Of a stretch of 64,000 bases of DNA, positions 51,001 to 60,000 are shown piece by piece. The stretch lies in sequence record NZ_CP106960.1; one strand, 5' to 3'. A program made the position numbers. This DNA comes from a plasmid. The first letter of the stretch is position 1, and each line of letters opens with the position of its first letter.

Positions 51001-54000
51001 TAAAAAGTCTCCAGTACAGATTTTTTGTGAGTCCGGTCTGCTCGAACAGCCCGGAGTGAAGAAGCAGAGTTCGCGCTCTGCTTTTTTATTGCCTGAAATC
51101 CGGCAATATCCTGCGCGTCGTCTGACGCAAACCTCCCTAGTCGTCCGGCCTCTTCTGCCGTCGTCCTTTTCGGTTTTTTTGCAATGAGTGAAACGCCCTC
51201 ATTACGCTTATGCCCTGACGGGGCGACGACGAAAAGCAGGGGTGGAGGCCGGATTATTTGGAGCCTGCGAGAAAAAATCTGGCCGGAAAGCGACAGCGGC
51301 CCTTGCTGCACGGAGACGCTCCTTCAGCGTGCATAAGTAATGAGAGGCTTTCACGGCAACGACGGACAGGACGGCAGAAGACGCCGGAAACCCGGCGTTC
51401 CCTGGCGACCGCCGGGGCGGTCAGTGAAAGCGGCGCTGCCGGAACGGCAGCTGCAAGCGCAAGGGGTTCAGGCATCGCTTGCTATCCGAATGGACGGAGA
51501 CGCGAGCGGCTCCGCGTAGCGCGGTGGACACACGTCCACCACGCGAAGTGCAGGCGACGACCCGGCTACGACGGGGAGCCGAAGGTGCCCGCAGTGTAGT
51601 TCGCAAACAGAAAAACTCGTGCAAAACCATCACTGAAAGTCGTCGAAATATAAAATTAAAAAAGTGCAGATATTGCACTTTTATGGATTTATTTTTTGCA
51701 TAATTTCGCACTAAAATAAGTGCAGTTTTTGCAACTTTGGTGGGTTTCCAGATGACGGGTTACGAGCTGCGTTTGTGGCGAAAAGGCATGGGCTGGAGCA
51801 GCGATAAAGCGGCGGAAGAGCTTGGCGTAAGCCTGCGCACCTGGAAAGAGTATGAACAGGCGGCAGAAGTAAAACGGGTCGTAGAACTTGCAACGGTTTC
51901 ACTGTCCCTCGCTGCGATCTTCCCCACGTGTAGGCTCCGAAAAACAACTAAAGAGCGTGTGCTTAACATGGTTCTTGCACTCCTGAACTCAGCGGGCCTG
52001 AAGGGGCCGCGCTGAGCGCCGCCCCTGCCCTTCTTCAGGCGGCAACGCCTGCGTTGCGCATAAAGTCCATCATGGCCTTGATCCTGCGCTGGCTGTTAAG
52101 CCTTTCTTCGAAGTTATTCAGGTAATAAGCAGGCGTATATCGCACCAGTTTAAACTGCTTCGTCAGGGTGTTGCCTGTAACCACCTCGGCAGCGATTCCC
52201 AGCAACGAAAGCTGTATAAACGCCATATCAGCCGCAATCGGATCGATATCGATACAGCTGGCAAACAGGTGAGCCGATGGATTGACGTCAGCCTCAAGCA
52301 GGCATTCAGCATAGGCAATAATCATCCCGGCAGAGCCGCAGGCCGGATCGCTTATTGTGGCGATACCCTCCCGTGCTATTTTTTCCTGAATACCGGGGAT
52401 CAGCATCCGAGCCATCATCGACTGGACGTAATACGGCGTAAAGTATTGCCCCATCCCGCCCGATCCCAGCTCCAGCTCCATGAAAATCGAGCCAATAAAA
52501 TCATGAAATTTTGCATCCAGAGAGTAATACATCAGGGTGAACAGCTCCTGAAGGTTGCGGATATCGGCTGCATCATACCGGGTCAGGATCTTACGACAGT
52601 ACTCCGCTTTCTCCGGTGTTTTAAGACCCACGATGTCCACTTCCCTGGCGGCCAGCCTGATAAAGTCGCTGAAAACATCCCAGCGGTGAAGGTGTCGGGC
52701 GGTCTGATTGAACAGACGAATAAACTGCTTTCGCGCCGTGTCGATAGACATCAGGCGCGGCGCGGCCGGAGGCTGAGGAACGACCGGCGCCGGCTGCACG
52801 GCAGTGCGGACGGCGTCGCTGTGTTTTACCTGGTCAAAGAAGTCTGCAAAGCTCATCTGGGACACGTTTTTCTCCTGCCGCCCCGTCAGGGGCGGCGTTT
52901 TTATCAGTTAAAGGCGCGTTTCAGTTCGAGCGTGCGCAGGACGTGACCCCAGTCGCTTCCGCACATGGCGGGAATGCGAATGCGGCGTTTCTTTTTAAGG
53001 CAGTGCGCGATATGACGACCGAACGCCCGCAGGGTCGGATCGACCTCGGCACTCGGAATGTCTTCCCGGTTGTGGCGGGTTTGTTTGCGTGTAACCGACG
53101 CCGGGGACTGGACAGACAGCGCGGAGGATGTAACAATCTGGACTTCACTGAATTGCATGGTTTGTTCCTTTTGGTGATGGCCGGATTTTCGTTTCGAGGC
53201 GTACAATCCGGCGTGGATGAAGCAGGCGTAAGCCTGCTTTTTTCATTTCTGGCTCAGGCTCTCAGGGCAGAACACCGCTTTCACTTTCGCCACGATATCG
53301 GCGTGGTTCAGGTTGCTGAAGTCACGCAGACGGAAATAGCGCTTACCAAAACGCGCAAAAATGTCCGTGACGTTCCCGCAAATCATTTCTGCCATCATGA
53401 AGGTTTCCGTGTCCTGGGCGGTGTCACAGCTCCAGTTGATCATTGGTGGGCGCAGACCCGCCGCGTCGTGGAACTTGTTCACGTCGATCTCGACAGGTGC
53501 GAGAAGCGCCTTCGTCTCACGGCTGCGCCAGTACGCATGCTCAGCTTCGGCGGTGGCGTTCATATCCAGAGAGGCGAATGAATCAGTTGTCTGTAAATGC
53601 ATGGTTTGTCTCCTTTTCAGTTTTCACATCACCCGTTGAGTTACGGGAGCCGCGGTTTTGACGTTTTGCGGGAACCTGCTGAAGTTTCCCGGGGGATAAA
53701 ACATCACCCGTTTGAGAACCTTCGCCGCAGGTGCGTAAACGCCACGGGCCGAGGCAGATGTCCGGGGCGGACGCCTGAAGTTTTCGCATGCGAAAAGTTT
53801 TGGTGGTCGTGCGCCAGCATTCACCCTGGACAGCCAGGAGGACTGTGGTGTTCTCAGCACCCGGCGGAGGGACTCAAAGGGGTGAAAAGGGACCGGACGG
53901 AATGGGCAGGGGCCCGCCGCAATGACGGAAAGCCGCGCGCGGCGAAACGGCGTTGCCCCCTACATCACGGCGCGTCTTCTGGTGACGGGATGCAGGGAGC

Positions 54001-57000: not shown

Positions 57001-60000
57001 CCTGACGCTTTCTTATCTTCATTCTCTGCGTCATCCTCCGGCAGATCAGCCTTACGGCACACGCCACGCTGCACGTACAGCTCACCCTCCATAAAGCTGG
57101 CTACCACGCCAGCATTCGACTTAAGCGCATCAGTCCATCCACGCACTTCTGCGGCATGTTCAATGAGGTTCATTTCGCTCAGGGCGGCGTAAGCCTCGTC
57201 ACTGTTCTCGTCGAGTGCATTAAGCTGATCGGTCAGTTCATCCAGACGACGGCTGTCATCCGGGTTGTATACCGCATCCGGCACCGGAAGCAGCAGGTAG
57301 TCGTTATCATTTGTACCGTAACGGCTAATTCTGGACGGACGGCCCATCGCCCATGCCCAGCCCTCTTTCTGCTGGATTTCGAGGGCAATTTTGTCCAGTT
57401 TTTCGGCCATCAGGGTGTCAACAAGCAGCCTGTCGACGGTCCCGTCGCCCTCCTGCGCGCTGAATAAATCTTCACGGACCACACCACCTGCCAGCTCGTA
57501 CGCCTCACGACCGATGAAGCCAAAACGGGCATCCGTAACGGCGATTTCACTCTCGGTGATCTGCCTTTTGACTAAATGGGCTGACGCACAGGAATAAGTC
57601 GCCATCAGGTTTTCATACACGGCGACCTGACGAACCTGATCGCTTTCAAGGCACAGCGCCTGACACTGCTCCATATCAAGCTTGTCTTCTGCCAGCAGTT
57701 TCAGCAGTGACGGTGCGAGGGTGGCGAGTTTCAGCATGCGCTGTACATGGCGGGAGCCGAACCCCAGTTCATCACCAATCTGCGAAGCGGTTTTGCCCAT
57801 CTCAGCCAGGGTGCGGAAGCTCGTGATTTGCTCTGCCGGGTGCATTGCCACACGCTGCTCATTTTCCGCATGAGATGCCGCAGCGGCGATTTCGCGCGAT
57901 ACGCGTTTAACAGGCACCACGTCGTCCGGCTGGATCAGGTTGTCTTCAAGGAGCAGCGCAAGGGCCGTGGTACGGCGACCGCCACAGGCCACGCCGGATT
58001 TACAGTCTGGCATATCATGGACAACGAGGTTCTGAAGCAGACCAATCGCAGCAATGGACGCAGCCAGTCCGCGAACGCTCTCCTTTGAATAGGGAATGGT
58101 TCTGGCATTCAGGTCTGAAATGACCAGATTTTTGACTTTCTCATACTCGATCGGTGTGGCATCGAGGATGGATTTCAGCACCTCCGGCGCGATGGCCTGC
58201 GCAGGGCTGGCTTTCTTACGGCTGGATTGTTTAGGGCTTTTTGCTTTAGACTCGGCAACTGACATAGTTAATACCTCCGGTGTTAATGATTGTCCGGCCC
58301 TGCGGAGTGACCGCTCCGGCAGGGCACCTTCATACTGCTATTTTCTGAATCCGTAGCTTGCAAGTGCGCGATTCATCCACGCCCCGCCATCTTTCTGGAA
58401 ATTCCATACACGCTCTTTCAACATCCCGTCTTCATCACGGACAACAAGCTGAAAATGCGTTTTCTGATCGTTCTCAATACCGACGTTGGTGTACTGCGCC
58501 GCAACAGCCCTCGCCTCTTCTCGGGTAAATGCCCCTTCAGGCAGCACCACAGGCGCGGTGGCAACGTCAGCGTTCAGCAATGCCGCTAGTTCAAGTTCTT
58601 CAGCGGTCGGTTCGCGTAGCGACACGGACTGATTCAGAAATTCCTGTAATGTTTTGCCCACTGCATTTCTCCTGATAAAAGGGTCTGGCCTTTAAAACCC
58701 ATCACCCGTTGAGTTACGGGAGCCGCGGTTTTGACGTTTTGCGGGAACCTGCTGAAGTTTCCCGGGGGATAAAACATCACCCGTTTGAGAACCTTCGCCG
58801 CAGGTGCGTCAACGCCACGGGCCGAGGCAGATGTCCGGGGCGGACGCCTGAAGTTTTCGCATGCGAAAAGTTTTGGTGGCCGTGCGCCAGCATTCACCCT
58901 GGACAGCCAGGAGGACTGTGGTGTTCTCAGCACCCGGCGGAGGGACTCAAAGGGGTGAAAAAGGACCGGACGGAATGGGCAGGGGCCCGCCGCAATGACG
59001 GAAAGCCGCGCGCGGCGAAACGGCGTTGCCCCCTACATCACGGCGCGGTTTCCGGCGACGGGATGCAGGGAGCGCAGGAACGGCGCGACTGAGCGGCGCA
59101 GCCGGAACGGCTGCTGCAAGCGATAAGGGGTTGCGTCAGGATGGAAACCCGCTGCCCCGGAGGGGCCGGGCAGAGACGGCGCAGCCGGCTCTGTGCGGAG
59201 CATGACAGCCGCCCGGACGCCCGGGGCAGCAAAAAAAAGCCGGAAAAACTAACTGTTATCTTGCTGAAAATTTTATTTTTTATTCGCTTCAGCCATCTCA
59301 GCATATTGCGGGTCGCTCGCTTTCGGCAACTGCAGGCTCAGCTGGCGGTAGTGGCGCAGCCTTTCCATAAAATACTCGCGAAGATGCACCGGCTGCTCGC
59401 GCGCGATAATTTCAGGTACCACCGGCTGATTCAGGCGCTCTTTAAACGCGACGCCCGACGCGGCCAGATCTACCGCCACCTTGTCCTGATCCTCTTTTGA
59501 TAGTTTTGAAAGATTAATTTCGCTCATATTTTTACCTTGTTAATTTTTTTACTGACCTGCGCTGCCAGATCATGCAGGGCGGCGTGTCGCGGCGCCGAAG
59601 GCGCAGTGACAGCCGCCGGCAGGCAAGGCCTGCCCGGGTTTTCCCACGGGCTGACAGGCGGAGGTGCCGCCTGCCTGGATCACCTTAACGTTGATCCTGC
59701 CGGATAAACTGTCCGCCTATGTATACCGCAGACTGGCAGCTCATAAAATGGCAAATTTCGTCGATCACTTCTTCGGTTCTCAGCTCCCGTAATCCGGCCT
59801 CACGGCGGCCGGCGTTAATTCGTTTTTTGTACTGACGCAGGATGTCACGGGTTTGTGTATCAAGTTTCATCATTCTGTCCTTTTATGCAGGGGGACTATC
59901 CCCCTGCCCTTAAATCAGTTCTGAAAAACGTGGCCTTCCAGGAACACCAGACCGTTCATAAACATATCCCGGCCGTAAGCATCATAATCAAAGTAACCGC

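Follow-up and report, generated by a model that had tools for sequence, protein, structure and literature searches.

The present work deals with a 64,000-nt stretch of the plasmid deposited as NZ_CP106960.1 (the window, a term used here for the whole stretch analysed), in which two near-identical direct repeats, copy A (53627-54169, + strand) and copy B (58700-59242, + strand), each precede an operon encoded on the minus strand. A and B are very probably class-1 single-stranded DNA (ssDNA) promoter cassettes of the Frpo/ssi (single-strand initiation) type operating by the mechanism proposed below, with A having been converted from B and with two further elements of the same region, C and D, representing other promoter types. 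This joint reading is carried by homology, position, orientation, strand-specific folding and covariation, each of which is documented here. A and B are members of a family that is already known, and their kind is not considered to be new.

Repeat finding, pairwise alignment and BLAST were all used for the comparison of the two copies, and the results agree. A and B are direct repeats of 543 bp that align without a gap and differ by 16 mismatches (97.05% identity), nine of which fall within the final 60 nt, while alignment columns 1-470 are 98.3% identical. An earlier reading of the sequence (the first-pass annotation) had described a pair of about 530 bp with more than 97% identity, GC-rich, non-coding, full of inverted repeats and abutting the ribosome-binding site (RBS) of a minus-strand operon, a description which was confirmed: GC content is 0.64-0.65 with a G-rich + strand, inverted repeats are abundant and neither copy carries any annotation in the closest deposited plasmid. 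The gene-side end of A is located 24 nt from ATG 53602, where the downstream minus-strand operon starts, and that of B 28 nt from an AGGAGA RBS (58672-58667), which is followed by ATG 58665 and GTG 58661.

The family to which both copies belong was identified by comparison with plasmid F, whose Frpo hairpin promoter is well known to turn on establishment genes as long as the entering DNA has not yet become double-stranded. A and B align over their full length with both F Frpo copies (NC_002483, 58015-58642 and 63403-64031), whereby blastn reported 72.6-73.3% identity over approximately 470 nt (E = 1e-57 to 1e-62). For the analyses described here a family set was assembled, in which class-1 copies of the window and of F are joined by those of seven other plasmids (17 copies in total), all aligned over 550 columns in the orientation of the transferred strand (T strand), and nhmmer with the profile derived from it returned E = 1e-110 for A and for B. 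A BLAST search for distant relatives of A in a plasmid collection yielded at least 14,916 places in at least 5000 records, mostly two to three per plasmid and up to eight per record, which is in agreement with Samuel et al. (2024, PMC11541004), who counted 13,089 homologues of Frpo distributed over 6,006 elements. In the classification of Wen et al. (2025, PMC12672017) the Frpo/ssi type constitutes class 1 of the ssDNA promoters, and class-1 transcription start sites in pESBL were mapped within the same work by 5' rapid amplification of cDNA ends. Furthermore, a truncated Frpo2 construct was reported to drive expression of an anti-CRISPR only when placed on the T strand within the leading region (PMC11541004). 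The F ssiD sequence (D90178), as listed by Samuel et al. (PMC11541004), corresponds to the first ~350 nt of the unit. The length of the window copies had initially been judged to be unusual. This does not hold, because the repeat unit of F itself comprises about 600 bp (three adjoining repeat families with 77-95% identity, 5.39 kb apart, when positions 8016-8622 and 13404-14012 of the extracted F stretch are compared) and A and B align to it end to end; 543 bp is thus the normal cassette size. The identity and architecture suggested at the outset were in turn corroborated by the homology to F Frpo1/2 (ssiD) and to ColIb-P9 ssi, which have been characterised experimentally, by the orientation within the leading region and by T-strand folding.

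Structural comparison with two of the closest known systems revealed both a common plan and clear differences. F Frpo1 (= ssiD, ssp1a) and Frpo2 (ssp1b) possess a homologous leader, a homologous main hairpin (P2) and a homologous distal module including its core hairpin, and F likewise carries two direct copies approximately 5 kb apart (5390 bp in F, 5073 bp in the window) in the same orientation relative to the origin of transfer (oriT), which flank a hok/sok-type locus (flmAB in F) and psiB-psiA. However, A and B are only 70-77% identical to F, and the F copies are 87% alike, whereas those of the window are 97-98% alike. Downstream of window copy B ssb is absent, copy A serves an N6-methylase operon instead of ygeA-ygeB, the ygeB-like DUF932 gene of the window being served by element C, and the MOBF/MPF_F backbone of F contrasts with the MOBP mobilizable type of the window. 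The F hairpin moreover contains a mismatched internal loop, which is mostly paired in the window copies, whose 3' arm has an extra small hairpin. With ssi1-3 of ColIb-P9/pESBL copy A shares motifs of the P2 middle and apex (TGTCCGGGG, AAAAAGTTTTGTGG, CCCTGGAC and TGTGG, in this order) as well as the distal P5 region, and in the ColIb-type copies, as in the window, the core hairpin directly follows; their leader and hairpin base are unrelated in sequence, and blastn of A against the three ColIb sequences gave a single match of 27 nt.

Within copy A, the gene-proximal leader (53627-53704, + strand) consists of a near-invariant block, CATCACCCGTTGAGTT.CGGGAGCCGCGGTTTTGACGTTTTGCGGGAACCTGCT (53627-53680), and a subsequent variable junction (53681-53704); it is presumed to be the transcribed 5' untranslated region. 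In the consensus fold the 5' halves of the leader pair over long range with 53905-53917 (P1) and 54016-54024 (P0). The main T-strand hairpin P2 (53704-53885, + strand) is homologous to the Frpo stem-loop, has an A/T-rich apex and holds the hexamer TGGACA (53827-53832) in its 3' arm. The distal module (53905-54169, + strand) comprises the 3' strand of P1, P3 (53919-53956), P4, P5 and the core hairpin, and beyond these a GC-rich region with hairpins that extends up to the repeat end; the module is conserved in F and other plasmids and lies outside the promoter hairpin. The core hairpin of A (54025-54041, + strand) reads GCAGCCG-GAA-CGGCTGC with the flanks GCGGC and TGCAAGC, and its helix (helix 14) covaries. 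The equally complete copy B has its P2 at ~58777-58958 and its core hairpin at 59098-59114. A direct repeat, CATCACCCGTTGAG / CATCACCCGTTTGAG, was additionally observed inside each class-1 copy (53627-53640 and 53702-53716 in A, likewise in B), with one site at the gene-proximal end and one at the base of the main hairpin, both near-invariant across the class-1 family; the unrelated 'Frpo*5' type starts with a similar CATCTCTCGGTGAGTT.

Position and orientation of the cassettes were derived from the transfer region. Between 45 and 64 kb the window is 98% identical to the MOBP mobilizable Leclercia adecarboxylata plasmid p707804-1FII (NZ_MH909330). The oriT core (48216-48265, + strand) lies between mobA (47838-48173, minus strand) and mobC (48417-48740, + strand) and shows the inverted repeat CATTTGTAATA...TATTACAAATG followed by the MOBP-type nick motif CACATCCTG/TCCCG; the relaxase gene (45118-47817, minus strand, according to the annotation of NZ_MH909330) belongs to an operon directed away from oriT. 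The ATCCTG contained in this core corresponds to the nick consensus of MOBP oriTs such as those of RP4 and R64, and the window oriT would presumably be of the ColIb/IncI-like type that has this motif. At a MOBP nick region the strand 3' of the nick goes first in transfer. With the nick motif on the + strand, the + strand would be the T strand and hence the template of the minus-strand genes, and everything above ~48.26 kb would be leading region, the cleaved strand being deduced from the nick motif. Relative to this motif (~48260) A starts at a distance of 5.4 kb and B at a distance of 10.4 kb, with the relaxase operon on the opposite side, and all leading-region genes except one helix-turn-helix (HTH) gene are encoded on the minus strand, so that the T strand is their template. 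A and B thus combine the stem-loop homology of class 1 with a leading-region location less than ~15 kb from oriT, template orientation and a stem-loop on the T strand. As to a location upstream of early establishment genes, B precedes the DUF905-ParB-psiB-psiA operon and holds the position of F Frpo2 and ColIb ssi3, though without ssb, and A precedes the N6-methylase operon, a variant cargo.

Based on these data and on the work with related plasmids, the following course of events is proposed. During conjugation the + strand would enter the recipient 5'-first from the nick at ~48260, whereupon each cassette would fold on the T strand into the long imperfect hairpin P2, which would mimic duplex promoter DNA. 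The host sigma-70 RNA polymerase would start within this hairpin and read the T strand toward lower coordinates, and the transcript would pass the conserved leader into the establishment genes, i.e., the methylase operon in the case of A and DUF905-ParB-psiB-psiA in the case of B. Complementary-strand synthesis would finally remove the hairpin and thereby turn the promoter off, and the transcript may also prime this synthesis. That A and B act as promoters, that they do so on ssDNA only and which sequence elements are used is assumed in analogy to F and IncI plasmids, for whose homologues activity on ssDNA, silence on double-stranded DNA and dependence on sigma-70 and SSB are known. The last step of the scheme leads to an alternative, in which the cassettes would mainly be ssi signals providing an RNA primer for synthesis of the complementary strand in the recipient, with gene expression being secondary. 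F ssiD, identical in sequence to Frpo, was first isolated as a priming signal, Fraikin et al. (2026) reported early, rifampicin-sensitive conversion events near the ssp1/Frpo promoters, and a large conserved distal module is part of the cassette, which is not needed for expression. Yet priming and expression are compatible roles, and every copy, in template-strand orientation, is placed exactly before an RBS and an operon. Priming as the main function is therefore rated as rather unlikely, and the promoter function is kept as the primary one.

Folding of the cassettes was found to depend on the strand. For the whole of copy A the + strand reaches -139.9 kcal/mol (z = -5.2), as compared to -115.4 kcal/mol (z = -2.5) for the minus strand, and for P2 (53704-53885) the T strand reaches -55.4 kcal/mol (z = -7.0), as compared to -39.1 kcal/mol (z = -3.05) in its complement, where no single continuous hairpin is formed. 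In each of the 17 class-1 copies the T strand exceeds its complement in stability (by 15.9 kcal/mol on average, range 5.9-23.8), and 11 coding windows of the leading region, taken as control, show no such bias (+2.1 ± 3.5). The consensus fold contains the main hairpin, two long-range leader-to-distal helices, several small distal hairpins and the core hairpin; 97.7% of the 1459 cells of this structure are paired, and ten pairs show compensatory changes. Changes on both sides of a pair occur in 39 cells, as compared to 11.8 ± 2.7 in shuffled alignments (none of 500 reaching 39) and to at most eight when the partners are slid by one to three columns. This covariation falls into helix 8 (columns 119-131 with 248-260), which lies midway along P2, and into helix 14, the core hairpin; most other helices are invariant and speak neither for nor against the structure. 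One G·T pair (columns 124/255) is invariant in 17 of 17 sequences. It is the strand asymmetry that separates a T-strand DNA structure from a structure of the mRNA.

The promoter itself must lie in P2 and the leader, since the Frpo2 construct that was functional in the work of Samuel et al. (2024, PMC11541004) starts inside the 3' arm of P2, runs to the gene and thus works without the entire distal module. The published -35, -10 and start positions of Frpo are given in figures only (PMC9849209, PMC12672017, PMC11541004, PMC10104558, bioRxiv 10.1101/2025.04.03.647016). A weight-matrix scan of the 17 homologues highlighted TTGACG-17-GAAGTT in the leader, TTGAGA-18-TAAACG in the 5' arm and TGGACA-19-TCTCAG in the 3' arm. 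TGGACA (53827-53832) is near-invariant in F-type and ColIb-type copies and stands opposite G or T, for which reason it reads better in the hairpin than in the duplex. With low confidence, TGGACA is suggested to be the -35 element, the A/T-rich apex to be UP-like and a mismatched stretch 17-23 nt down the 3' arm to be a pre-opened -10 region. Several candidates were rejected. TTGACG-17-N6, the top match of the scan, has a predicted pairing partner (the 3' strand of P1) that is absent from the working construct of Samuel et al. For TTGAGA-17/19-CATCAC/TAAACG, for TTGTGG-15/21 followed by TGGACN or GACAGN and for a bulge (C/T)AT motif the key -10 bases (A2, T6) are not kept across the family.

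A number of observations have to be weighed against the assignment of A and B as hairpin promoters. A scan of both strands of 53550-54250 for a sigma-70 consensus pair, with 9 or more matches out of 12 required, yielded none. Of the candidate promoter parts, only the -35-like boxes, TGGACA among them, are conserved across the class-1 family, together with the A/T-rich apex; the -10 parts vary, and no conserved -10 was found. TTGACG-17-N6 likewise has a variable -10, and its TTGACG does not occur in the 329-nt sequences of the ColIb type that Samuel et al. list. In A and B, most of the loop that F keeps mismatched is paired, so that the idea of a pre-melted -10 is weaker here than for F. By itself, Watson-Crick covariation does not tell a DNA from an RNA structure; this is achieved only by the G·T asymmetry. 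The raw count of G·T versus A·C (96 versus 7 cells) is biased by the structure prediction and was replaced by the comparison of strand folding energies as the unbiased form of this test. The initial expectation for the folded + strand was confirmed in part only, as the strand-specific stable hairpin was found and -35 and -10 hexamers juxtaposed in a stem could not be demonstrated for A and B. It could be argued that ordinary double-stranded DNA promoters with structured 5' untranslated regions are present and that the conserved pairing reflects an mRNA leader structure, an explanation in line with the symmetry of Watson-Crick covariation between the strands and with the most conserved block lying between hairpin and RBS, where it would belong to the mRNA leader. 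This explanation is nevertheless highly improbable: neither strand of 53550-54250 offers a promoter-like site, folding of the mRNA-sense strand is 16-32 kcal/mol less favourable than that of the T strand, with the same sign in 17 of 17 homologues, and in the mRNA the conserved G·T pairs would turn into A·C mismatches.

Besides their assignment as class-1 cassettes, the history of A and B was reconstructed from related plasmids. A and B match each other at 98%, but their identity to the homologues sampled from the seven more distant plasmids is only 70-77.5%; within these plasmids the paralogues are 68-89% identical. A related Enterobacter plasmid has no class-1 copy before its methylase operon and carries another hairpin type there, which matches the 'Frpo*5' candidate of Samuel et al. 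with 78% identity over 398 nt. At the same position of a Lelliottia plasmid, class-1 sequence makes up the first 331 nt, with 94.9% identity to the plasmid's own equivalent of B, and the remainder matches the Enterobacter type (78% over 613 nt), so that the element is a chimera, the class-1 tract of the window measuring 543 nt. The ancestral element before the methylase operon in related plasmids is of the 'Frpo*5' type (stretches L011, 5975-6853, and L010, 6123-7092). The 'Frpo*5-7' candidates described from Salmonella (Samuel et al. 2024) share the core hairpin and the distal module with the window and differ in their promoter hairpin; this type holds the A position in the Enterobacter plasmid, where the window has class 1. 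Orthologues among these plasmids are 88-91% identical, i.e., less alike than the paralogues within a plasmid, which indicates gene conversion. A very probably arose by conversion from the B position, in tracts of different length that replaced another promoter type, and the transfer from B to A has either occurred more than once or is ongoing. The alternative left by the first-pass annotation, recent duplication or gene conversion, is thereby sharpened to a conversion tract of 331 nt in Lelliottia and of 543 nt in the window. That the repeats might be selfish or neutral DNA without a function of their own, comparable to repetitive extragenic palindromes, miniature inverted-repeat transposable elements or recombination scars, is hardly conceivable despite several copies per plasmid (up to eight places per record) and spread by gene conversion, given that orientation and position relative to oriT and operon starts are strict at every locus examined, that compensatory changes keep the hairpins and that homologues have a demonstrated function. 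As in F, the hok/sok locus lies between the direct repeats A and B, whose recombination would delete it; for the equivalent locus in F it was argued that deletion by repeat recombination would be penalised (Couturier et al., PMC9849209).

Next to the class-1 cassettes, elements C and D were examined, which had been regarded as diverged copies of A and B. Element C (49802-50136, + strand; z = -7.1 for the whole region) is located upstream of the DUF932 gene and forms a hairpin at 49834-49945; its distal parts are a 43-nt palindrome (50021-50067, + strand) and the core hairpin (50066-50082, + strand). The palindrome, GCCGCCCGACCCGGAACCGCCTGGCGGGTCCGGGTCGGGCGGC, is perfect and adjoins the core hairpin. 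Element D (51140-51480, + strand) forms a 260-nt T-strand hairpin (51140-51400, z = -4.7) and has its core hairpin at 51435-51451. Each is located before an operon of the minus strand and gives the more stable fold on the T strand. BLAST with 7-nt words identified only 29-41 nt shared between A/B and C (50060-50097) or D (51429-51468), and the profile hidden Markov model of the 17 copies matched approximately 150 nt of the distal half of D (51334-51480, E = 2e-6) and the 34-nt core of C (E = 0.004). Neither BLAST nor nhmmer found a match of C or D to the promoter-proximal profile positions 1-277, which hold the class-1 stem-loop. The description as diverged copies could thus not be upheld; C and D would rather be other hairpin-promoter types that have the core module in common with A and B, in the case of D together with ~150 nt of weak distal homology. 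C is related to class 2 and to the 'Frpo*1/3' type of Samuel et al. and not to class 1, and 143 plasmid records, among them ones from Xanthomonas, Serratia and Aeromonas, contain its central 40-60 nt. The hairpin of D is confined to the lineage of the window plasmid; D was found in 61 records only, all of them mobilizable plasmids and nearly all from Enterobacter and Citrobacter (two Leclercia, three other).

Class 2, represented by F ssp2/'Frpo3' and by the ardA and klcA promoters of pESBL, has the GATGCAAGG / CCTTGCATC stem and the layout in common with C, and it differs from A and B in having neither sequence homology to them nor a core hairpin. The window itself was observed to contain three class-2 hairpins of 226 nt on the T strand that are homologous to F ssp2/'Frpo3' (60456-60681, 61618-61843 and 62768-62995). 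These copies are 99% and 96% alike; one is located upstream of ardA and the others upstream of two more minus-strand genes. The 3' arm of a class-2 copy reads TTGCAT (60643), 15 nt and TAAAGT (60664), with the -10 opposite non-complementary bases, where the duplex form would read TGTCGT. In C the corresponding arm reads TTGCAT (49924), 16 nt and CAGAGT (49946), the latter in an internal loop; here TTGCAT lies in a perfect duplex and CAGAGT is opposite non-complementary bases, the duplex form of which would read CGATCG. The class-2-like ardA hairpin and C illustrate the hairpin-promoter principle clearly, unlike A and B, by combining a perfect-duplex TTGCAT with an unpaired -10-like hexamer.

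The core hairpin is the part that A, B, C and D have in common. As noticed already on first inspection, GCGGC-GC(A/T)GCCG-GAA-CGGC(T/A)GC-TGCAAGC is conserved at four sites (50066, 51435, 54025 and 59098), all on the + strand. A scan of one genome per species with the exact pattern GCGGC-GCNNCCG-GAA-CGGNNGC-WGCAAGC, in which loop and flanks are fixed by design, identified the hairpin 49 times in 45 loci, nearly all of them Enterobacterales plasmid contigs; a few short contigs of unrelated taxa are probably mis-binned. The gene-proximal neighbour was class 1 of the F type in 30 cases and of the ColIb type in four, D-type in five, Frpo*5-type in four and C-type in four (weak matches), with one case without match and one too short. 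The two variable stem positions were found as GA/TC, AG/CT, CT/AG, TG/CA, AT/AT and GG/TC, the last one giving a G·T pair on the T strand only. Loop and flanks are also conserved in the unconstrained alignment, except for three copies with a TTC loop. In one published construct the core hairpin is dispensable for expression (PMC11541004). A covarying stem, a G·T pair confined to the T strand and constant loop and flanks make up the pattern expected of a hairpin that is recognised by a protein or polymerase. The core hairpin is a portable module that stands on the upstream side of at least four unrelated ssDNA-promoter hairpin types. It is tentatively considered, as a possibility somewhat more doubtful than probable, that the core hairpin with its fixed flanks is a separate functional T-strand DNA element and not part of the promoter. 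A role as stop or insulator against RNA polymerase or complementary-strand synthesis coming from the upstream operon is plausible. If so, the downstream promoter hairpin would not be unwound or duplexed too early, analogous to the ssp2 roadblock reported in 2026; alternatively, the core could be a priming or loading signal. Two other functions were rejected, namely a DnaG (G4-type) priming site, as CTG at the 3' edge is replaced by CAG in many copies, and a transcription terminator within the distal module, as the scan of 53550-54250 found no terminator-like site there. As read from the sequence, hok seems to have a terminator-like hairpin of its own upstream, at ~54325-54360.

The genes of the leading region are arranged as follows. 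Downstream of C lies the DUF932 (ygeB-like) gene (48902-49801/49731, minus strand), and downstream of D lie a DUF5983 gene (50137-50709) and a hypothetical gene (50762-51001), both on the minus strand. The HTH regulator gene (51737-52015, + strand), located between D and the methylase operon, is the sole + strand gene of the leading region; within 51600-52015 an A/T-rich stretch lies before the gene, in which GTGCA...TGCAC palindromes resemble operators. The methylase operon downstream of A (minus strand) comprises two hypothetical genes (53243-53602 and 52904-53206) and the N6-methylase gene (52035-52865, Pfam N6_Mtase), and the operon downstream of B (minus strand) comprises DUF905 (58338-58661/58577), a ParB-like gene (56250-58265), psiB (55783-56211) and psiA (55055-55786). 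Here, the RBS and ATG 58665 give rise to a mini-open reading frame of 10 codons, the in-frame GTG 58661 would lengthen DUF905 by 28 codons relative to the annotated start, and 58577-58700 is without the ssb gene that is located downstream of Frpo2/ssi3 in F-like and IncI plasmids. The hok/sok toxin-antitoxin locus (54430-54753, minus strand) was assigned by an Rfam sok match of 97.8 bits and the Hok annotation, and genes for the DNA polymerase III theta subunit and ArdA are further minus-strand genes of the leading region. Among the Rfam families none covers the A/B repeats, the only matches in the window being sok, C4 and isrK. The latter two lie on the + strand at the window start (isrK, 809-884; C4 antisense RNA, 908-993), which suggests that a P1-like phage immunity region is carried there (809-993).

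Single-strand promoters set which anti-defence and establishment genes are expressed during the first minutes in a new host, and this choice of early genes bears on the spread of resistance plasmids. The concept as such gains little from the window, which is a clear and mostly ordinary example. Its one leading region holds seven hairpin elements (C, D, A, B and the three class-2 hairpins) of at least four sequence types, several of these promoter types share a conserved distal hairpin module, and whole promoter cassettes appear to be swapped between operons by gene conversion, which here would have placed a class-1 cassette before an orphan methylase operon.

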